NCBI GenBank assembly: GCA_963775425.1 | Contig: CAVZJB010000005.1 | Span: 608,001-672,000 of the forward strand | Direction of reading: 5' to 3' | Source of the DNA: an uncultured delta proteobacterium | GTDB lineage: Bacteria > Myxococcota > UBA727 > VGSZ01 | Length of the DNA: 64,000 nucleotides | Part shown: one piece after another, positions 1,852 through 11,181 of the stretch | How the letters are laid out: the number at the start of each line of letters is the position of its first letter | Numbering within the stretch: position 1 is the stretch's first letter | The notes under the pieces: generated by a model | What the model was told of the DNA's origin: nothing | What the model saw: only the letters and a program-made list of their open reading frames with translations | Database searches by the model: none | Made by a program: the position numbers and the translations under genes

Positions 1852-2469
1852 ATGGCGACGATGGCGAAACAGGACGGCGCTCCGGACACAGAGGAGGGCA
1901 CGACCGACCTCGCGCCGGTGGTCGGCCAGAACCTCCGCCGGCTGCGCGGCGAGCGGAAGCTCTCGCTCGAGGGCCTCGCCAAAATCTCGGGCGTGTCGCG
2001 CGCGATGCTCGGCCAGATCGAGCTCGGCCACTCGGCCCCCACCATCAACGTCCTCTGGAAGATCGCGCGCGCGCTCGACCTGCCGTTCTCGGCGCTCATC
2101 AGCGCACCCAAGCACGTCGGCGGCACCCGGGTCCTCCACGCCACGCGCACCAAGCGGCTGATGTCGCACGACGGCAGCTTCTCCTCGCGCGCGCTCTTTC
2201 CGATCGACGAGCCGCGCCGCGTGGAGCTCTACGAGCTCATCTTGAAGAAGGGCGGCGTGGAAGAGGCCGACGCGCACCCGGCGGGCACCCGCGAGAACCT
2301 GGTGGTGGCGCACGGCGACGTCGAGATCGTCGTCGGCGGCGAGTCGCACCGGTTGACGACGGGCGACGCCATCCTGTTCGAAGCCGACAGCCCGCACAGC
2401 TACAACAACGTCGGCGACGTCGACGCCACCATGTACCTCGTGATGACGTACGCCGAGCAAGTCGGTTGA
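1852..2469 (+). CDS. XRE-family HTH plus cupin transcriptional regulator
   Basis: VGQNLRRLR...SLEGLAKISGVSRAMLGQIELG..PTINVLWKIA HTH. C-terminal cupin (HPAGTRENLVV...GDAILFEADSPHSYNN). Confidence 0.9.
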   Translation: MATMAKQDGAPDTEEGTTDLAPVVGQNLRRLRGERKLSLEGLAKISGVSRAMLGQIELGHSAPTINVLWKIARALDLPFSALISAPKHVGGTRVLHATRTKRLMSHDGSFSSRALFPIDEPRRVELYELILKKGGVEEADAHPAGTRENLVVAHGDVEIVVGGESHRLTTGDAILFEADSPHSYNNVGDVDATMYLVMTYAEQVG

Positions 2470-2517
2470 GGTGAGCGCCGGACGCGCCGGCGCCCACGCA
2501 TCATCGGCGGGGAGCGT

Positions 2518-3270
2518 TCAGCCGCGCCGCGCCTTGCCGGCGCGCCACACGCGCGCCGGCTTCTTCGTCGTCACGCGCTTGCCGGGCGCCGGCACCACCA
2601 CGCCGTCGTCGACGAGCTTCAGGAAGCGGCGGCGGAAGTTCCCCGGATCGAGCGCGCGGCCGTGCAGCGCCTCGTGCACCGCGCGCAGCTCGGCGATGGT
2701 GAAGGTCTGCGGCGCGAGGTGCAGCGCGAGCGGTCCGCGGTCGACGTCCCGGCGCATGCGAGCGAGCGCGGCGTCGACGATGGCGGCGTGGTCGAAGGCG
2801 AGCGGCGGCAGCGCCGCCGCGGGGAACCACCCTGCCGCGGCGGCGTCGGAGCCCGCCTTCACGAAGCCCGCGAGCTCGGGGCGCACGAGCGCGAAGTACG
2901 CCACGGTGATCACGCGCCCGCGCGGATCGCGGCCCGGCGTCCCGAACGCGCCGAGCTGCTCGAGCAGCACCTGCGCCCGCGACAAGCCCGTCTCCTCGAC
3001 GAGCTCGCGCGCCGCCGCGTCGTCGAGCGGCTCCCCGCCCTTGCCGCCGGCGCCCACCTGCAGGAACCCGCCGGGCAAAGCGTGCGTGCCCGCGAAGGGG
3101 GGACCGCCGCGCACGACGAGCAGAACGTGCAGCGCCCCGTCGATGAGCGTGAACACGACGATGTCGGCGGTGACGGACGCGCGCGGATGGTGCGCCAGGA
3201 ACTCCGCGTCGGCGGCGCGGCGGCTCGACGCGCGCTCAGCCACGGCGCGCCAGCTCCTCGAGCGGCCCAT
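2518..3270 (-). CDS. nrtR: NrtR-family Nudix-related transcriptional regulator
   Basis: SVTADIVVFT, ALPGGF, Nudix box EPLDDAAARELVEETGL, LEQLGAFGTPGRDPRGRVITVAY, LAFDH. Winged-helix end FTIAELRAVHEALHGRALDPGNFRRR. Confidence 0.9.
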   Translation of the reverse strand: MGRSRSWRAVAERASSRRAADAEFLAHHPRASVTADIVVFTLIDGALHVLLVVRGGPPFAGTHALPGGFLQVGAGGKGGEPLDDAAARELVEETGLSRAQVLLEQLGAFGTPGRDPRGRVITVAYFALVRPELAGFVKAGSDAAAAGWFPAAALPPLAFDHAAIVDAALARMRRDVDRGPLALHLAPQTFTIAELRAVHEALHGRALDPGNFRRRFLKLVDDGVVVPAPGKRVTTKKPARVWRAGKARRG

Positions 3271-3348
3271 GCCGGTACACGTTCCACGGCGGCGACGTCA
3301 CGCGCCGACGCTACACCGGCCGCAAGGCGGCGCGCGCGTTCGGCTGTG

Positions 3349-4170
3349 TCACGGTGCGAAGAAGCCGGCGCCGGCGCCGGGGGCGACGCGGCCCTGGCTC
3401 GCGCGAACGGCGCTCTGCGACACCATCTGGAACGCGCCGCGCAGCCCCGCCGGCGTCGCGTCCTTCTGGACGAGCACGCAGCCGTCGGGGAACCCCATGT
3501 TCGCGGCGACCGTCTTGAAGTCGTCGTCGCCCACGCCGACGAAAGCGAGGATGAACTGCTCGCTCTTCAAGAGGTCGGCCGCGAGCTTCCGGCACGCGCG
3601 CGCCGAGCGGCGGCTCCCGACGTCCTGTCCGTCCGTGACGACGACCACGATGCTGCGCGTGGGTGTCCCCGCGTCGCGCAGCCGTTGCGCGTAGGCGACG
3701 TTGGCGGCGCAGGCGTCGATGAACGTGTCGTACAGGTGCGTGGTGCCGCCCGAGCGGTACGTGGCCCCGGGCTGCAAGCGCACCGCGTCGTCGACGGGGA
3801 CGTAGCCGTGCACGACGTCGGCGTGGCTCTGGAAGGTCCACAGCGCCACCAGCACCGCGTCCTTCTCCTTGGAGCCCGCGAAGGCGTCGAGCAACGCGCG
3901 CTCGCCGTCGCAGACCGCCTGCTCGAGGCCTCGTCCCCCGATGGAAGACGAGGCGTCGAGCACCAGGGTGATGAGCGTGACGTCGCTCGCCTGGATGTCG
4001 TCGGCGGCCATGCCTGCGGCGCCGGCGATGACGAGCGCGCCGAGGTCGCCGGACAAGAGCGTCGCCGACTGCGCCGACAGCGTGCCCGTCTGCTGCGCGC
4101 GCGAGAAGAGCGCGGCGACGTCGAGGGCGTTGCGGTTTTTATTGTTGCCGTTGTTGTTTCCGTGGGTCAC
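3349..4170 (-). CDS. TerY-like von Willebrand factor A domain protein
   Basis: GTG at 4170 overlaps the TGA at 4167-4169. MIDAS motif LVLDASSSI (DxSxS), GGTTHLYD, VVVTDGQD, AFVGVG. This is the C-terminal 273 aa of track ORF 3349..6147. Confidence 0.8.
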   Translation of the reverse strand: MTHGNNNGNNKNRNALDVAALFSRAQQTGTLSAQSATLLSGDLGALVIAGAAGMAADDIQASDVTLITLVLDASSSIGGRGLEQAVCDGERALLDAFAGSKEKDAVLVALWTFQSHADVVHGYVPVDDAVRLQPGATYRSGGTTHLYDTFIDACAANVAYAQRLRDAGTPTRSIVVVVTDGQDVGSRRSARACRKLAADLLKSEQFILAFVGVGDDDFKTVAANMGFPDGCVLVQKDATPAGLRGAFQMVSQSAVRASQGRVAPGAGAGFFAP

Positions 4171-5109
4171 GGGAGCACCTCCGTGGAGCGAACGATGTGC
4201 ATGCCGGCGCGCTTGAAGCCCTCCATGGCCTCGGCGGCGATGCGCGGGAAGTCGAGCGAGGGCGGCAGCGGGTCGAGCGGCGGCGGCGGCACCGGGCTCA
4301 TGCAGTCCTCGAGGATCCAGAATCTTGTCGAGGAGCGCAGGGTCGCACTGCGCCTCCATGTCCTTGAGCGTCGCGAGCACGCAGTGGCTCTTGGCCTGGC
4401 CGAACACATAGACCTTGTCGTAGTCCATGAGCAGCTTGAAGAACGGCGCGTTGAAGGCGCCGACGCTCTTGTGTCCGAGCTCCTTCACCTCGGGCGACAA
4501 CACCGAGTAGTTCTCGGTCATCGCGTGCGTGCCCTTGGTCTCGAAGTGCGTCTGGGCCTTGCGCGCCACCGCGTGGAAGATCGCCGCCTCCATCAGCGAC
4601 GGCACCAACGCGTGCGAGAGCCCGCCGAGGAGGGTGTGGAAGGGCCACACGGTGAGCACGTACTTGCCGGTCTCCTCGAGCCTCTTGGTGTACTCGAGGC
4701 ACTCGCGCGGGTGCGCCAGCGGCGTCCAGCGCCCGGCGCGCACGTCCTCGTGGAAGATGGGCGTGAACGGCGCGGGGTGGTTGCCCTTGTCGTCGGTCCA
4801 CCACGCGGGGTGGAAGATCTGGAACACGCGGTGCGTGTCGAGCGAGAAGTGCAGCGCGGTGATGCGCTCCATGTTGCGGTAGAGCCAGTCGAGCGTGCGC
4901 CGCATGTCGTCGACGGCGCCGGGGACGAAGAGGGACGCGCCGGGGGTGCAAAAGCCTACCTGGCAGTCGATCCCGAAGGCGGCGATTCGCTCCTTGTCGG
5001 CGGAGGCGGGCGCGAGGTCCGCCGTTCGCGCCGCGTCGGCGACCTCGGCGGCGCGTTCGATCCAGAGCTCGCCGATGCGTTTGTCGTCGTGGAATGCCGG
5101 TGTCCTCAT
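4167..5109 (-). CDS. pncA: Nicotinamidase / isochorismatase-family cysteine hydrolase, with a single-base frameshift near 4321
   Basis: GAGGAGG RBS before ATG 5109. Catalytic triad D (IDCQVGF), K (ETKG), C (AKSHCV). Metal ligands DTH and WPFH. The conserved tail WILEDCMSPV...DF continues in another frame after an extra A at 4321-4322. Confidence 0.75.
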
Positions 5110-5123
5110 GGTGTCCTCCTCGT

Positions 5124-7061
5124 TCAAGGCCGCAAACGCAGCCGGGTGATGACCCTGCGGGCGACGACAAGGAGGGAGCCGCCCGCACCGGGCAGGAGCT
5201 CCACGCTGTCGTCGACGAAGGGCCGGGTGTCCGAAAACGTCGTCCCCGTGATCAGGCGGTCGCCGTCCACCTCGACCGCGCACACGCCCTCGTTGGATGC
5301 CGACAAAATCTTGCCGCCGGCGATGCACTTGCCGCGGATGCTCGCGAGGATGGGCGCGCTCTCGGGTGCCCCCGACGCCGCCGCGACGAGGTGGCCGCTC
5401 CCATCGACGAGCGACAGCGTGTGCATGCGCCTGCCGTCGACGTCCTCGGCGATGCCCACGAGGCACCATGCCGGCGACGGGCGCGCGCCCGCCTCGCTCC
5501 GTGCGAAGACGGCCTCGACGTCGACGACCTTTCCCCGCGGCTGCGGGAGCGTCACGTCGAAGAAGCGGTCGCGGGCGAAGCCGAACGCCATCAGCGCGCG
5601 CCCGGCGCGATACAGGCCGAGGCCGCCGTCGTCCGCCGACAGGAGCGCGGTCTTTCCGGCGAGCACGCGGCCGACGCGCGTCCGCGTCTCGTGGTGCACG
5701 AGCGCGTCGCCCTCCACGACGAACAGCCCGCCGCGTCCCGCGGCGAACGCGTCGCCGCTCGTGTGCGCCCGATCGACGACGGCGCCGCCGCGCACCTTCA
5801 CCAAAGCGCCGTCGAGCCCGATCCACGTCTCTTCGCCCGCGATCACGAAGCGCATCCCCGCCGGCCGCTCCCCCGTGAGCACCGTGGCGTCCGTCGTGGG
5901 ACGCGCCCCCGCGGTGGGGCGCCCGAGCTTCGTCATCGCCCGCGCCTCCCGGCGCACCCCGCCGTCCTCCTCGATCAGGTACGCCACGTCGCCGCCGTCG
6001 TTGCCGCGCACGGCGCGCGCGAGCAGCACGAGGCCGCGGGCCTCCACCACGACCTCCTCGACGACGCCGCCGCGGGTCTTCACCACCGGCGCCGGCACCG
6101 CGGTCCTGCACGCGGGGCACGCGGCGCGGGCGTGCTCCAGGCCGCATGACGCGCAGGCGCGAAAGCGCAGCCGATCGAGCGCCGTCGACGACGACAACGG
6201 CGCGCGCTCACCTTTGTCGAAGCAGCGCGCGAAGTCGTCGAGCATCTCGTCGCTGAGCGTCTCGAGCGGGAGCGCCGCGCGCGGCAGTTGCACGTCGCCG
6301 CGCAGCACGCTCCACGAGGCCTCCGCGCGCCGCAGGAGCGTCGGCAGCTTCGCGTGCACGCCGCCGTACGGGTGGATGCACAGGAGCGACTGAAAGAGGA
6401 GCGCGCGCAGCGCGAAGGCGTCGCTGCCGGCGTCGAAGCAGGGAGCGTCGACGAGGCTGCGCCCGTAGAGCCGCGGGTCGAGGAAGCGCTCGTGGGCCAC
6501 CGGGCAGGGCAGCGCGCCGACCTGCATGGAGTCCGCGTCGATGAGGAACGGGGCCGGCGCGCCCGCGGCGCCGGGCGCGAGCACCACGTTGCCGTCGTTG
6601 AGGTCGCCGACCACCACGCCTGTCGCGTGGAGCGCGTCGAGGGCCGCCGCGAGGGCGCGAAAGATCGACACGACGTCGCCCGCGCGCTCGCTGCGGCCCT
6701 TGCGCGCGAGCCGCGCGATGTCGGCGGCGTCGCGGACGCGTCGCATGGCGTAGCCGGCCACGCCGCCGCGCTCGTCGAGGATGAGCTCCTCGGGCGTGAT
6801 GACGAGCGCGGGCAGGCCGGTGGGGAACGCGCGCAGCTTCTGCTCGCGCAGCCGGGCGATCTTCTGCGCGAGCGCGGCGGAGGACGACGCCGGCGCGGCG
6901 CTCGTCGTCGTCGCGAGCGCATCGTGGAAGATCTTCAGGGCGAGCTCGAGCGTCGGGTGCGCATACACCCGCGCCTCGCCGCCCTGGCCGAGGAGCAGCG
7001 TGTCGTCGAGGACGAGCGGCGCGCCGCGAAACGTCAAGCGCGCTGCGGGGGTGGTCTTCAT
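5124..7061 (-). CDS. YegI-like (TerY-P type) atypical Ser/Thr kinase with CxxC..CxxC ribbon and beta-rich C-terminal domain
   Basis: ATGA overlap with the PP2C stop. LGQGGEARVY Gly loop, ALKIF, VVGDLNDGNV catalytic loop, IDADS in place of DFG, SDAFAL..HPYGG, CASC...CPAC. Confidence 0.85.
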   Translation of the reverse strand: MKTTPAARLTFRGAPLVLDDTLLLGQGGEARVYAHPTLELALKIFHDALATTTSAAPASSSAALAQKIARLREQKLRAFPTGLPALVITPEELILDERGGVAGYAMRRVRDAADIARLARKGRSERAGDVVSIFRALAAALDALHATGVVVGDLNDGNVVLAPGAAGAPAPFLIDADSMQVGALPCPVAHERFLDPRLYGRSLVDAPCFDAGSDAFALRALLFQSLLCIHPYGGVHAKLPTLLRRAEASWSVLRGDVQLPRAALPLETLSDEMLDDFARCFDKGERAPLSSSTALDRLRFRACASCGLEHARAACPACRTAVPAPVVKTRGGVVEEVVVEARGLVLLARAVRGNDGGDVAYLIEEDGGVRREARAMTKLGRPTAGARPTTDATVLTGERPAGMRFVIAGEETWIGLDGALVKVRGGAVVDRAHTSGDAFAAGRGGLFVVEGDALVHHETRTRVGRVLAGKTALLSADDGGLGLYRAGRALMAFGFARDRFFDVTLPQPRGKVVDVEAVFARSEAGARPSPAWCLVGIAEDVDGRRMHTLSLVDGSGHLVAAASGAPESAPILASIRGKCIAGGKILSASNEGVCAVEVDGDRLITGTTFSDTRPFVDDSVELLPGAGGSLLVVARRVITRLRLRP

Positions 7062-7813
7062 GGGCACGGCGGCCCCCTGCGGATCACGGCCACGCTGCAG
7101 TCGTCGACGGGGCCGCCGCATGCGCACCAGGCGTTCATGCGCTTTTGCGCGAGGCTCTTGTTGTGCAGGTAGCGCGCGCCGCGCTCGAATTCGGCGAGGC
7201 CGCCGAGGGCGGTGCCGTCGGCGAGCACGGCGTCGCGCGCCGCGATGAGCTCGCCGGCGCCGTCGCTGCAGACCGCCAACGACGACGAAAACGACCCGAC
7301 GTGGTGAACGTGCGCGCGGAGCCTGCCGTCGAACAGCGCGTACGCGGGGTAGTCGGGTGCCGGCCCCTCGTCGAGGACGATCACGCGCCCGTCCACGCTC
7401 ACCAGGCCGTCTCCCGCGCCGAACACGACCGCGCTGTCACCGGTGGCCACCGCTGCGACCACGGTGAACAAGAGGTGCTCTTCGACCACCGCGGCGACGT
7501 CGCCTTCGTCGACGGCGAGGGCGCGCGTAAGGCGGCGCAGCTCGTGGACGAGCGCGCCCATGACGAGCGCAGGCAGCGCCGCCAGCGTCGCCCCCTCCCG
7601 CACGCGGCGGGCGGCGTCGGCGGCGACGAAGCGGGCACCCACGCCCGCTCCGACCTCCGACCGCGCCCCCGCCGAGCAGCCGTCGGCCACGCAGACCGCG
7701 ACGCACGCGCCGTCGTCGACCATCGCCGTGACGTCCTGGCCGCCGCGCCCGAGGCGGCGATGCGCACGGCCGGGCACGCTCGCGGTGAGGACGACCGGCG
7801 CCGCGCCCGTCAT
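7058..7813 (-). CDS. PP2C-like (YegK/PphC type) protein phosphatase
   Basis: SVPGRAH...QD, VADG, GAGDG, CSDG and DDCSVAV motifs. Start is ATG 7813, or a leaderless ATG at 7852. Confidence 0.85.
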   Translation of the reverse strand: MTGAAPVVLTASVPGRAHRRLGRGGQDVTAMVDDGACVAVCVADGCSAGARSEVGAGVGARFVAADAARRVREGATLAALPALVMGALVHELRRLTRALAVDEGDVAAVVEEHLLFTVVAAVATGDSAVVFGAGDGLVSVDGRVIVLDEGPAPDYPAYALFDGRLRAHVHHVGSFSSSLAVCSDGAGELIAARDAVLADGTALGGLAEFERGARYLHNKSLAQKRMNAWCACGGPVDDCSVAVIRRGPPCP

Positions 7814-7843
7814 GGCGTGGCTGCCGTTTGCTTGTGATGCGAC

Positions 7844-7862
7844 AAGAGTCATTAAGACTATT
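7844..7862. promoter_or_regulatory. Candidate NrtR operator (imperfect palindrome AAGAGTCATTAAGACTATT)
   Basis: AGTC-N5-GACT dyad, matching the GT-N7-AC core of NrtR sites. AT-rich in a very GC-rich background. Overlaps the -10/+1 region of the operon that encodes nrtR. Confidence 0.7.
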
Positions 7863-7888
7863 ATCGTGTCGAAAGAGGCGCTCGTCAA
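7860..7888 (-). promoter_or_regulatory. sigma70-type promoter of the PP2C-kinase-pncA-vWA-nrtR operon
   Basis: Minus strand TTGACG (7888-7883), 17 bp spacer, GATAAT (7865-7860). Confidence 0.7.
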
Positions 7889-7980
7889 GGGCCGGCCAAA
7901 TGCGCCAAGGAATTCACAGGGTTCGGGGCAGATCACCCCGGCGTCGAGGGTTGTGCGAGCACGCCGTCGCGCCGCGTTCC

Positions 7981-8006
7981 GGAATCAGGAGCGCGCGCGC
8001 GCCGTT
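7981..8006 (+). promoter_or_regulatory. Possible ECF-sigma promoter of degP
   Basis: GGAATC-N17-GTT, about 75 bp upstream of the ATG. Confidence 0.35.
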
Positions 8007-8079
8007 TTCGCCTTCGGTTCCACAGCGGCCATTGCCCGCGTTTTCGACGTGGCTACACGCTCAAGGTGGAGATGTTCCG

Positions 8080-9519
8080 ATGAAGAAGCCTCTTTCCTCT
8101 CTCATTCTCGTCGTCGCCGTCCTCGCCACTCCGGCGCTCGCGCGTGCCGACAATCTCTGGCTCGAGCGCTCGTCCGCTGCGCCGCGGGTGCAGCTCCCGT
8201 CGCTCTCGCCGCTCGTGAAGGAGTCGGAGCCGGCGGTGCTGTCCATCTACGTCGAGAGCACCGTGCGTCCCGACGTCGACACGAACGACCCCCGGCTCGA
8301 CTTTTTCCGGCGCTTCGGCTTCAAGGTCCCTGACTTCAAGCAGCAAGGCCAGGGTACGGGGTTCATCATCTCGCCCCAGGGTTACGCGCTCACCAATCAC
8401 CACGTCGTCGAGAACGCCACCAAGATCCAGGTGCGCGTCGACGGCTCACCGCAGCTCCTGGGCGCGCACGTCGTCGGCGATGATCCGCGCACCGACGTGG
8501 CGCTCATCAAGATCGACAGCAGCCGCAAGGACTGGCCGGCGTTGCCGCTCGGCAACAGCGACATCCTTCAGGTGGGCGACTTCGTCGTCGCCATCGGCAA
8601 CCCCTTCGGCCTGTCGCAGTCGGTCTCCATGGGCATCGTCTCCGCCAAGGGGCGCCGCGACATCGCGCCCTCGGGGCGCCACGGGCTCTACGACTTCATC
8701 CAGACCGACGCGAGCATCAACCCGGGCAACTCGGGGGGGCCGCTGCTCAACGTCGCCGGTGAGGTCATCGGCATCAACTCGGCCATCAACGCCGCCGGGC
8801 AGGGCATCGGCTTCGCCATCCCCATCAACATGGTGAAGCAGGAGCTCCCGCAGCTCGAGAAGAGCGGCCACGTCGACCGCGCCTGGATCGGCGTCGCCAT
8901 CGAGGACGTCAACCCCACCGTCGCCAAGGGCCTCGGCCTCGATCACGCCCGCGGCGCGCTGGTGGCCTCCGTCGTCGACAAGAGCCCGGCGTACAAGGCC
9001 GGCCTCAAGCCGGGCGACGTCATCACCAAGTTCGACGGCAAGAAGATCGAGCGGGCGAGCAATCTCCCGCTCCTCGCCTCGAACGCGGGCATCGGCAAGT
9101 CCGTCATGGTCGAGCTCGTGCGGGACGGGGAGCTGCGCTCGGCGCGCGTCACGCTCGCCAAGATGCCGAACCAGGGTGAGGAGGCGGGCGCCGGCCCGGG
9201 GAGCTCGTCGCAGGGCGAAGAGCAGAACAACCCGGGCAAGATCGGCGTCAGGGTCGACACGCTCGACGACAACTACCGCCAGCGCCTGGATCTGCCGGGC
9301 AGCGTCCACGGCGCCATCATCATCGACGTCGACCAGAACGGCGTCGCGGCGCAGGCCGGGCTCGAGGCGGGCGACGTCGTCACCCAGGTGAACGGCGCCT
9401 CCGTCACCAGCGCTCGCGCCTTCGTGCGCCAGCTCGACAAGGTGAAGAGCGGTGGGCTCTTGAAGCTCATCGTCAACCGCCGCGGCACGCAGACGTTCGT
9501 GGCGTTCGTCAAGCCATAG
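8080..9519 (+). CDS. degP: Do/DegP/HtrA-family periplasmic serine protease with two PDZ domains
   Basis: Signal peptide. Triad TNHHVV / TDVA / INPGNSGGPL. Two PDZ domains (SPAYKAGLKPGDVI, AAQAGLEAGDVV). Confidence 0.92.
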   Translation: MKKPLSSLILVVAVLATPALARADNLWLERSSAAPRVQLPSLSPLVKESEPAVLSIYVESTVRPDVDTNDPRLDFFRRFGFKVPDFKQQGQGTGFIISPQGYALTNHHVVENATKIQVRVDGSPQLLGAHVVGDDPRTDVALIKIDSSRKDWPALPLGNSDILQVGDFVVAIGNPFGLSQSVSMGIVSAKGRRDIAPSGRHGLYDFIQTDASINPGNSGGPLLNVAGEVIGINSAINAAGQGIGFAIPINMVKQELPQLEKSGHVDRAWIGVAIEDVNPTVAKGLGLDHARGALVASVVDKSPAYKAGLKPGDVITKFDGKKIERASNLPLLASNAGIGKSVMVELVRDGELRSARVTLAKMPNQGEEAGAGPGSSSQGEEQNNPGKIGVRVDTLDDNYRQRLDLPGSVHGAIIIDVDQNGVAAQAGLEAGDVVTQVNGASVTSARAFVRQLDKVKSGGLLKLIVNRRGTQTFVAFVKP

Positions 9520-9654
9520 CCCGCTCTCGGTCATCGCGCCGATAAGCGCGCGCGGCGGTCGCCCTTCCGGCGTCGCCGTGCGCGCTTGTCGCATCAGGCG
9601 ATCGTGACCCGGCGCGCCCGTGCCCCCCGCCGATACCTTGGGGAGAGGTGGTCC

Positions 9655-11181
9655 ATGGCGGACGGGACGACGGTCGACAGCGCGAGCAACGCGGAGCGGC
9701 AGCGGCAGGTGGCGCAGGCGCAGGCCGCGCAGACGCAGCAGCAGCAGCAGGCGCAGGCGCCCGCCACGGACCCGGCCAAGCAGGCCGCGCAGCGCGACGA
9801 CACCGTGGCGGCGGCCGCCACCGCCAACGACGTGCAGGGTCAGCGCGGGCAGAAGCTCCTCGACGCCAAGCCCAAGGCGCCCGGCGCGCCCGCGCTCCCC
9901 GGCGGCGATCCCGTCACGCCCGCCGCCACCAGGCTCACCGCCGACCAGGAGAGGACCGCGGCGTCGTTGCGCGCGCGGTTCACCCAAAAGCCCGACGCCG
10001 CCGGCTTCAACACGTACGACATCAAGAACGACAAGATGCGGGCGCTGCGCGACGCCACCGACTACGCGTCGAAGATCACGGACCCCGGGCAGCGGGAGCG
10101 GTTCGTCGCGTCCATCGCGCCGCAGGCGGGCGCCGCCGCGGGCGACGTCAAGAACCCCGGCGCCATCGAGCAACTCAAGAGGCTCGGCGAGCTCGGCACC
10201 ACGCAGAGCGCGCAGACCATGGCCAGGGAGGCCGTGCGCACCGGCTTCTTCGAAAACACCGTCCCCTTCGCCGACGGAAAGACCAAGGTCGGGCAGGCGC
10301 TCGGGGACATCCGGCAGCGGTCCAACGACAAGCTCGCCGGCGTCGCCGGCGACGTCGCCAAGGCCGTGATCCCGTTCGTCGACGCGGGCAACAAGCTCGT
10401 GCACGGTGACGTGAAGGGCGCGGCGAAGAGCGCGGGCATCGACGCCGCGCTGCTGCTCGCCGGCGGCGTCATCGGCAAGGGCGTGAAGCTCGCTGCGCCC
10501 CTCATCAAGGACGGCGTGAAGGCGGGCCTCGACCTCCTGAGAGGCTCCGCGAGCACGGCGGAGCGCACGGTGGGGACCGAGGCGAAGGTCGTCGAGCAGC
10601 TCGCCAAGCCCACGGTGACGGCGCCGCCGACGGCGGAGACGCCGCCCGCCGGACGGGACCTGCTCCACGATCCCAAGCAGACCGAGCCCTTCAAGAACCA
10701 GAAGATCACCGACACGGGCATCCACGCGCAGGGCGGGCTCACGCGCGCCGAGGGCGAGGCGATCAACGGCTTTCGCGACAAGCTGAACGCGTACAACGAC
10801 AAGTTCGGCCTCAACCGCGACCTCCCGCCGACGGCGGGCAGCGCGCGCGACGCCGTGTCGAGCGCCAACCGCGGCAAGGACGGGCTCGCGCGGCTCAACG
10901 CGGAGATCCGCCGCACCGACGAGACCGTGAACAAGCACCTCACGCCCGATGACCTCGCCGGCCGCGCCAAGGAAGCGCGCGGCGTCAGCACCGGCTACGA
11001 CCACGTCAAAGAGACCCAGGACGCGTACCTGAACCTCAAGAGCTCCGTGGCGCGCATCGACAAGTACCTCGCCGATCACCCGAACCTGCCCGAGGCGCAG
11101 GCGCGCTACCTCCTCGAGCGCAGGAACGGCCACGCCGACCTGGCGAGGACGCTCGAGAACACGCTCGGCTTTTACGAGTAG
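9655..11181 (+). CDS. Putative polymorphic toxin with C-terminal Ntox28-like nuclease domain
   Basis: GAGGT RBS. Q/A-rich N-terminus. Gly-rich hydrophobic pre-toxin-like segment (IPFVDAG..GDVKGAAKSAGIDAALLLAGGVIGKG). C-terminal HLTPDDLAG..E.RG...GYDHVKETQDA. Confidence 0.6.
   Translation: MADGTTVDSASNAERQRQVAQAQAAQTQQQQQAQAPATDPAKQAAQRDDTVAAAATANDVQGQRGQKLLDAKPKAPGAPALPGGDPVTPAATRLTADQERTAASLRARFTQKPDAAGFNTYDIKNDKMRALRDATDYASKITDPGQRERFVASIAPQAGAAAGDVKNPGAIEQLKRLGELGTTQSAQTMAREAVRTGFFENTVPFADGKTKVGQALGDIRQRSNDKLAGVAGDVAKAVIPFVDAGNKLVHGDVKGAAKSAGIDAALLLAGGVIGKGVKLAAPLIKDGVKAGLDLLRGSASTAERTVGTEAKVVEQLAKPTVTAPPTAETPPAGRDLLHDPKQTEPFKNQKITDTGIHAQGGLTRAEGEAINGFRDKLNAYNDKFGLNRDLPPTAGSARDAVSSANRGKDGLARLNAEIRRTDETVNKHLTPDDLAGRAKEARGVSTGYDHVKETQDAYLNLKSSVARIDKYLADHPNLPEAQARYLLERRNGHADLARTLENTLGFYE

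Follow-up and report, generated by a model that had tools for sequence, protein, structure and literature searches.

What does a nicotinamidase-type gene do when it lies between the gene for a protein kinase and the gene for a von Willebrand factor A (vWA) protein, in an operon that carries the marks of a repressor of nicotinamide adenine dinucleotide (NAD) metabolism? The question is raised by five genes in a 64,000-nucleotide (nt) stretch of DNA from an uncultured delta proteobacterium of the Myxococcota (assembly GCA_963775425.1, contig CAVZJB010000005.1, positions 608,001 to 672,000), referred to here as the window. The genes encode, in order, a PP2C-type phosphatase, a YegI-like Ser/Thr kinase, a nicotinamidase-type amidase, a vWA protein with an intact metal-ion-dependent adhesion site (MIDAS) and an NrtR-family regulator. 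An earlier note, made from the sequence alone, had seen in them a candidate switch or defence system responding to NAD+ breakdown. We propose that the locus is probably an NrtR-repressed operon for the first step of the Preiss-Handler pathway, with a nicotinamidase placed inside a signalling module of the TerY-phosphorylation (TerY-P) kind. It looks like a control layer on NAD recycling, likely undescribed, and not like an anti-phage weapon.

Triads of the TerY-P or YegL-PphC-YegI kind are widespread. The classic TerY-P triad comprises a MIDAS vWA protein, a PP2C-like phosphatase and a Ser/Thr kinase with a zinc ribbon (Anantharaman, Iyer and Aravind 2012, as cited in the available part of PMC11090510). 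For the E. coli kinase, the available part of bioRxiv 819920 describes both the substrates and the stimulus of YegI as open questions.

The operon, its promoter and its operator

The five genes are confirmed as a real operon (Table 1). A plot of G+C at third codon positions (GC3) gives five consecutive minus-strand coding frames (2518-7813) within a window of 72% G+C. Together with the translations and the family scans, it bears out the description of five co-directional genes for PP2C, a YegI-like kinase, a nicotinamidase-type enzyme, a MIDAS-intact vWA protein and NrtR. The overlaps and short gaps that were said to link them are present at every junction. The phosphatase and kinase genes share an ATGA (7061-7058), 14 nt separate the kinase and amidase genes, the amidase stop codon overlaps the vWA start codon in a GTGA (4170-4167), and 78 nt lie between the vWA gene and nrtR. 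The operon is bordered by a divergent HtrA-type protease gene on one side and a convergent XRE-cupin regulator gene on the other.

A consensus scan of 2300-8150 finds one sigma-70-like promoter, against a mean of 0.1 in shuffled sequence; position 7888, where the interval of the earlier note ends, is the first base of its -35 box. The predicted operator covers the final 3 nt of the -10 box and the point where transcription would start, so the description of a single promoter overlapped by an NrtR-type palindrome was accurate. NrtR sites are palindromic with the same core (Rodionov et al. 2008, in the available part of PMC2330246). The operator matches the motif at 11 of 12 positions and is the best and only site scoring at least 11 in the 8.26-Mb genome, where base composition would lead to an expectation of 0.87. 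Sites scoring 10 in the same genome number five against about 15 expected, which is chance level. A repeat search with a 6-nt seed did not report the palindrome because its perfect arms are only 4-5 nt long; its score comes from the motif.

The regulator has the Nudix plus winged-helix architecture of NrtR (Pfam NUDIX, E 2.6e-14; NrtR_WHD, E 2.3e-10) and scores 114 bits with the NCBIfam NtrR model, under that model's equivalog cut-off of 400. The genome holds three genes with NrtR_WHD. A second NrtR paralogue (C17:275878-277714, NrtR_WHD 80 bits) is followed by an SPFH/Band 7 gene and has at its start an AT-rich 21-bp palindrome within a genome of 72% G+C; it seems to represent a separate NrtR regulon that has its own motif.

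In the model that we propose, cleavage of NAD+ would yield ADP-ribose and nicotinamide, and ADP-ribose would lift NrtR off the palindrome that lies across the -10 box and the transcription start. All five genes would then be transcribed from the single promoter. The amidase, a putative long-form, metal-type nicotinamidase, would convert nicotinamide to nicotinate and pass it to PncB, which would be supplied from elsewhere in this genome and, in many relatives, by a pncB-like gene standing first in the operon. The kinase and PP2C would set the phosphorylation of the vWA protein, of the amidase or of both, and would thereby gate the activity or assembly of the amidase.

Table 1. Features of the operon, in window coordinates
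Feature	Position	Strand	Description
Sigma-70-like promoter	7860..7888	-	TTGACG (7888-7883), 17-nt spacer, GATAAT (7865-7860); 10/12 matches
NrtR-type operator (predicted)	7844..7862		Imperfect 19-bp palindrome, type AAGAGT-N7-ACTCTT, GT-N7-AC core
PP2C-type Ser/Thr phosphatase	7058..7813	-	251 amino acids (aa); Pfam PP2C_2, E 2.2e-9
Hanks-type Ser/Thr kinase, YegI kind	5124..7061	-	645 aa
Long-form nicotinamidase-fold amidase	4167..5109	-	About 313 aa if read through; frame broken at ~4321-4322
vWA-domain protein, intact MIDAS	3349..4170	-	273 aa, GTG start; Pfam VWA, E 9.6e-7
NrtR-family regulator	2518..3270	-	250 aa; Nudix domain and C-terminal winged helix

A conserved cassette and its link to NAD salvage

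The amidase served as query for related loci, one genome per species. This gave 80 loci, nearly all from metagenome-assembled genomes of Myxococcota, and these were searched with the five window proteins (tblastn, E ≤1e-5). Where there is room on both sides, the order PP2C-kinase-amidase-vWA on one strand recurs in 57 of 60 loci (exceptions L011, L074 and L075). Identity to the window is 64-77% for the amidase, 50-81% for vWA, 31-48% for PP2C and 28-53% for the kinase, which makes vWA the second most conserved gene of the cassette after the amidase. In the relatives, too, the amidase stop and the vWA start overlap or are a few bases apart. Among 355 genomes of the phylum (a tally that includes one unpublished genome, G225), 186 have a match to the amidase; these include 146 of the 171 genomes in one family and 4 of the 6 in the window's own family.

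The conserved unit is the four-gene PP2C-kinase-amidase-vWA cassette and not the five-gene arrangement. The idea that all five genes travel together therefore stands for the four-gene core and falls for the adjacency of nrtR, which is found downstream in 19 of 63 loci with room, adjacent in 17 and at 1.6 and 4.6 kb in the other 2. Several Myxococcaceae have nrtR 8-15 kb downstream. In three genomes of this family (G222, G224 and G278) the match to the nrtR orthologue contains one in-frame TGA each.

The operator is still present in most loci. At a score of at least 10 of 12, between -150 and +30 of the first operon gene, it occurs in 40 of 60 loci, while none of 1130 control windows drawn from the related loci themselves has it; the counts were made, however, in the very loci that supplied the motif, and those loci are kin. 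Sorted by regulator, it is found at this score in 12 of the 16 loci with an adjacent nrtR and in 28 of the 44 without one. Lowering the score to at least 9 of 12 gives 51 of 60 loci and 12 of 1130 control windows.

Where nrtR is not adjacent, many loci place the operator about 1.5 kb upstream of the PP2C gene and before a further gene of about 478 aa. This gene heads the operon in 35 of 60 loci and has no Pfam match at E ≤0.001. Its profile matches nicotinate phosphoribosyltransferases in the PDB (2f7f, 2.8e-20; 4yub, 1.1e-18), and alignment with the genome's own PncB by hhalign gives 97% probability. By these profile matches it is predicted to be a divergent, pncB-like nicotinate phosphoribosyltransferase, and the order of such operons would accordingly read operator, pncB-like gene, PP2C, kinase, amidase and vWA.

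The amidase is also found in the company of this gene alone. In five Myxococcaceae loci an amidase of the main type (56-62% identical) directly follows the pncB-like gene and the triad is missing; three of the five have nrtR after the amidase and an operator of 11-12/12 before the operon. A second amidase subfamily, 35-40% identical, repeats the pattern. It is found in cassettes of the same order (L096, L097, L099 and L106, with nrtR at the head in L099 and L106) and also outside any triad, as pncB-amidase (L100), as nrtR-amidase with pncB 3.2 kb upstream (L101) or alone (L098). Some Myxococcaceae genomes hold both forms, a plain pncB-like/amidase operon and a separate nrtR-PP2C-kinase-amidase-vWA cassette. 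The triad-less operons argue that the amidase is a salvage enzyme in its own right; the triad is a module attached to it with the gene order fixed, and this in two amidase subfamilies. The statement that this is not a plain salvage operon is correct for the window, where pncB, nadD, nadE and prs are indeed missing from the interval 2518-7888. It does not extend to the relatives, which have the pncB-like gene at the head in 35 of 60 loci and, in other Myxococcaceae, salvage operons without a triad.

The genome of the window has a canonical pathway as well. On another contig (C7:145572-150301) a canonical pncB and a canonical 188-aa PncA-like isochorismatase gene (79.9 bits with Pfam PF00857) lie 2.8 kb apart, and no operator of the AAGAGT-N7-ACTCTT type was seen in that region. 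A 790-aa gene on the opposite strand lies between the two. The cassette amidase is consequently the second such enzyme in this genome.

The operon shares several features with the NrtR salvage operons (nrtR-pncA-pncB and variants) described in the available part of PMC2330246. These are the Nudix plus winged-helix regulator, a GT-N7-AC operator over the promoter and a nicotinamidase-type enzyme. A pncB-like gene in the same operon is shared only by the window's relatives, the window operon itself having no pncB. It differs also in its long-form amidase of about 320 aa, which falls outside Pfam Isochorismatase, and in the interleaved kinase, PP2C and vWA genes. In the part of their paper that was available, Rodionov et al. 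2008 place in the NrtR regulon pncA-pncB operons and two unnamed genes, nrtX and nrtY; the main text of PMC2330246 does not mention Myxococcota. A full-text literature search for nicotinamidase together with vWA, PP2C, TerY or NrtR, the identities of nrtX and nrtY being outside its scope, returned no description of the combination, which agrees with the earlier note, whose author knew of no characterised system with this architecture. New here are the series in Myxococcota from plain pncB-like/amidase operons to triad operons, the two amidase subfamilies and an operator common to loci with and without an adjacent nrtR.

The amidase and the triad

The amidase gene of the window carries one extra T at ~4321-4322 relative to four orthologues (ATTCTGG against ATCTGG). 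The assembled frame therefore shifts and reads on into the vWA gene, while the true C-terminus continues in another frame to the TGA that overlaps the vWA start. The earlier reference to a repaired operon was apt, since it is this 1-nt insertion that calls for repair. The 80 loci yielded 76 orthologue frames, every one of them intact (318-343 aa). The window copy is either a pseudogene or an assembly error and may be inactive; no public sequencing run contains the stretch (best share 0.07).

The family to which it belongs is large. There are 1333 homologues of about 320 aa at 65-84% identity, of which the best 120 are 68-84% identical, and some sources name them nicotinamidase. Of 1.84 billion cluster representatives, 669 match a family profile at E ≤1e-30 and 1752 at E ≤1e-10. 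An AlphaFold2 (AF2) model of an 84%-identical orthologue, of moderate quality with a predicted local distance difference test score (pLDDT) of 77 and three segments below 50, was compared with the PDB by Foldseek. Its eight best matches are all nicotinamidases or pyrazinamidases (E 2.5e-7 to 5.5e-5), with 2wta the best at 2.5e-7; 2wt9, 2h0r, 1ilw, 3v8e, 3pl1 and 9u8m are also among them. The fold search thus upholds the assignment of the hydrolase to the nicotinamidase type. The Asp, Lys and Cys motifs (GIDxQ, ETKG and SHCV) and a D-x-H...H motif are invariant in the family. A D-x-H...H motif is typical of metal-dependent nicotinamidases. By likeness to PncA motifs, and not by superposition, we take D48, K192 and C243 to be the candidate catalytic triad and D91, H93 and H100 the metal site, all of them invariant.

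The same data have to be set against the view that the hydrolase is not a nicotinamidase and that the four proteins serve signalling by forming or breaking down a different nucleotide or metabolite with an amide group, or by deamidating a protein. Compared with canonical PncA, the family has long inserts and about 120 additional residues, and it fails Pfam Isochorismatase; the genome has a canonical PncA-like gene besides; and other amidases of the isochorismatase fold, namely carbamoylsarcosine amidase, biuret hydrolase and maleamate amidase, follow among the fold matches (E 7e-5 to 8e-4). All eight best matches are nevertheless nicotinamidases, the D-x-H...H motif (as assigned from PncA motifs) is invariant, and the genes adjoin pncB or pncB-like genes and nrtR in many genomes. 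We consider a different substrate improbable.

Some members of the family are fused to other domains. In six proteins of 583-613 aa (P0139, P0144, P0148, P0163, P0170 and P0188) the long-form amidase is C-terminal, behind a conserved domain of about 250 aa for which Pfam, the Atlas and the profiles of the vWA, kinase and pncB-like proteins give no match. P0141 (614 aa) consists of two amidase domains in tandem, and in P0122 (655 aa) the amidase is joined to an alcohol-dehydrogenase GroES-like domain.

The remaining three proteins have the make-up of a TerY-P triad, as Pfam, the likeness to YegI and the MIDAS bear out. The kinase and E. coli YegI share 27% identity across 361 aa (BLASTP, pairwise E 2e-11). 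Its catalytic residues (G25/G27/G28, K43, D153, N158 and D175) are invariant in 23 orthologues, and at least 90% of rows retain the cysteines of a zinc ribbon at about residues 300-320 (C303, C306, C315 and C318). In its AF2 model (pLDDT 87.7) the kinase domain and ribbon are followed by an all-beta, propeller-like C-terminal domain of about 320 residues (~327-645). The best Foldseek match of the model is LRRK2 (kinase-WD40), followed by many Hanks-type kinase domains. One kinase orthologue (L070:5967-7784) has an in-frame stop codon, which may mark a broken gene or a sequencing error. At least 98% of 60 orthologues preserve the PP2C motifs (Q26-D27, D44-G45, G134-D135-G136, D184-G185 and D237-D238), and the MIDAS of the vWA protein (D77-x-S79-x-S81, T149 and D185) is invariant in 26 sequences. 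With its catalytic motifs intact in kinase, PP2C and vWA, the triad looks active.

All components of the TerY-P triad, as the available part of PMC11090510 describes it, are shared by the window, including the zinc ribbon C-terminal to the kinase domain. Three self-contained genes are not what is found, however, since in 57 of 60 loci the amidase gene is fixed between kinase and vWA, in the order PP2C-kinase-amidase-vWA. The window differs further in the extra propeller-like domain at the C-terminus of the kinase, and in being linked to NrtR and NAD salvage and not to Ter genes or restriction systems. The E. coli proteins YegL, PphC (YegK) and YegI are of similar size to those of the window, and in E. 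coli B strains the phosphatase and kinase genes also overlap by an ATGA (available part of bioRxiv 819920). The similarity to YegI lies in the kinase domain, whereas PphC and YegL are only marginally similar to the window PP2C and vWA proteins in pairwise comparison (E 0.16 and 0.058). YegI belongs to the integral membrane proteins according to the same part of bioRxiv 819920, whereas the C-terminal part of the window kinase is predicted to be all-beta and not helical. The K-12 locus has neither an amidase nor NrtR.

That the triad and the amidase are merely co-regulated is the next possibility to be weighed. The amidase would then carry out plain salvage, and the triad would be a general stress-signalling unit that uses an ADP-ribose-inducible promoter and has its targets elsewhere in the cell. 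Main-type amidases do occur in operons that have no triad, so the triad is not needed, and E. coli YegL-PphC-YegI occurs with no amidase at all. A complex prediction for amidase and vWA returned a score of 0.00 and no verdict; it offers no positive sign of contact and counts neither for nor against binding. Set against this is the position of the amidase gene, which is always between kinase and vWA, in two subfamilies that are 35-40% identical and in four of five viral-classed contigs. Its stop overlaps the vWA start or lies a few bases from it, and such fixed interleaving would be unusual for unrelated functions. No cassette with the triad and without the amidase was seen in the 60 loci with room, a count that is biased because the amidase was the query. 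Separate functions seem to us unlikely, although less so than a different substrate.

The fixed position and the stop/start overlap suggest that the amidase and the vWA protein may be a pair. One form that this could take is a dedicated post-translational gate on the nicotinamidase. The propeller would sense a signal of NAD breakdown or a metal signal, and phosphorylation of the vWA protein or the amidase would switch entry into salvage. We put this forward tentatively, as the more speculative part of our proposal. An invariant, Ser/Thr-rich loop of low confidence after the catalytic Lys was considered as phospho-acceptor and dropped, being equally conserved in the triad-less amidases.

Besides the shared origin of the operator motif and its counts, several observations weigh against the proposal of an NrtR-repressed salvage operon with its own signalling module. 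The closest relatives of the window (L001, L002 and L005) have operator scores of 7-9/12 and no nrtR in the locus, and a genome of the same family has its nrtR orthologue on the same strand, 18 kb downstream. The amidase gene of the window is itself frameshifted. At the sequence level the amidase has no Pfam match at E ≤0.01 (Isochorismatase, PF00857, included), no NCBIfam match and no match to a PDB sequence, and the model on which its fold assignment depends is of the moderate quality noted above. As the second enzyme of its kind in this genome, it might act on something other than free nicotinamide. Finally, because the triad-less amidases keep the loop after the catalytic Lys, this loop lends no support to phospho-control of the amidase.

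Viral-classed contigs, the defence question and what the cassette may mean

The profile of the main amidase subfamily has no match on viral contigs. That of the second subfamily matches five IMG/VR contigs of 81-266 kb, and four of these hold all four genes in the locus, the order being PP2C-kinase-amidase-vWA in three and vWA-PP2C-kinase-amidase in another. The fifth contig ends upstream of the kinase. By IMG/VR class, three of the five are linear, one bears terminal repeats and one is a provirus, with CheckV completeness of 74-100%. Neither Terminase_6N nor Phage_capsid (HK97-type) is matched on any of the five, and their viral nature is for that reason taken from the IMG/VR and CheckV classes. 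Of ten flanking open reading frames (ORFs) searched against PHROGs, most have no family; the sole matches are to a helicase, a Mom-like protein and one family whose function is unknown. Beside the cassette on two of these loci (L111:10025-10846 and L109:14228-16540) are a gene for Mom-like DNA modification (phrog_1384, E 7.7e-22) and one for a large helicase (phrog_62, E 1.8e-89).

The earlier note had raised anti-phage defence, in which a TerY-P-like triad induced by an NADase or by phage depletion of NAD+ would execute or reverse an abortive response and the amidase would remove nicotinamide. NrtR control would indeed couple expression to NAD+ cleavage. The kinase weakly matches PADLOC models of the PD-T4-6 kinase (E 8.7e-6 to 2.7e-4) and of MkoA (E 6.7e-4), and Gao et al. 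2020, cited in the available part of PMC11090510 (the eLife paper on CoCoNuTs), credit TerY-P-like modules with a stand-alone anti-phage function. The system described there likewise unites vWA, PP2C and kinase. However, its kinase is fused to an OB fold, and neither an amidase nor NrtR belongs to it in that description, whereas the window kinase has a zinc ribbon and a propeller-like domain after the kinase domain and no OB fold. PP2C, amidase, vWA and NrtR have no PADLOC match at E ≤0.01, and no PADLOC system is matched.

The surroundings also speak against defence. Ordinary genes lie on both sides of the operon in the window (M16 peptidase, HtrA, PCMT, aminotransferase, alpha-amylase and histidine kinase), and the flanks of four related loci hold SDR, MatE, SPFH, glycosyltransferase and tRNA synthetase genes; all are housekeeping or metabolic, with no defence gene among them. 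The near-universal presence of the amidase in one family, at the frequency given above, is not the patchy distribution between strains that defence would lead one to expect, and the cassette is inserted into pncB-like/amidase salvage operons. Its carriage on five contigs classed as viral fits the restoration of NAD by an invader better than defence by a host. Given the lack of a PADLOC system match, the ordinary flanks and the near-universal amidase, the defence reading is not borne out, and we regard it as very doubtful. Directly after the HtrA gene, the window has a GC3-supported 553-aa ORF (9520-11181, plus strand) with no Pfam match at E ≤1e-4.

We return to the proposal that the operon serves NAD salvage under NrtR, with a TerY-P-like module built around the amidase. 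Control of bacterial NAD salvage has so far been described mainly as transcriptional, through NrtR, NiaR and NadR, and the cassette would add a post-translational layer to it. In this locus, the gene-by-gene coupling of a triad to a single enzyme whose chemistry is known and to a regulator whose effector class is known turns the open question of what such triads act upon into one of simple assays. The Myxococcaceae that carry both forms of the operon offer a natural comparison, in a group with genetic tools. Should the amidase prove to be gated by phosphorylation, triads of the TerY-P/YegI type would gain in the amidase-vWA pair their first assigned physiological target. Carriage on viral-classed contigs ties the cassette to the contest between phage and host over NAD+, and on such large contigs a gated amidase would help invaders to rebuild NAD+ in the face of NAD-depleting immunity.

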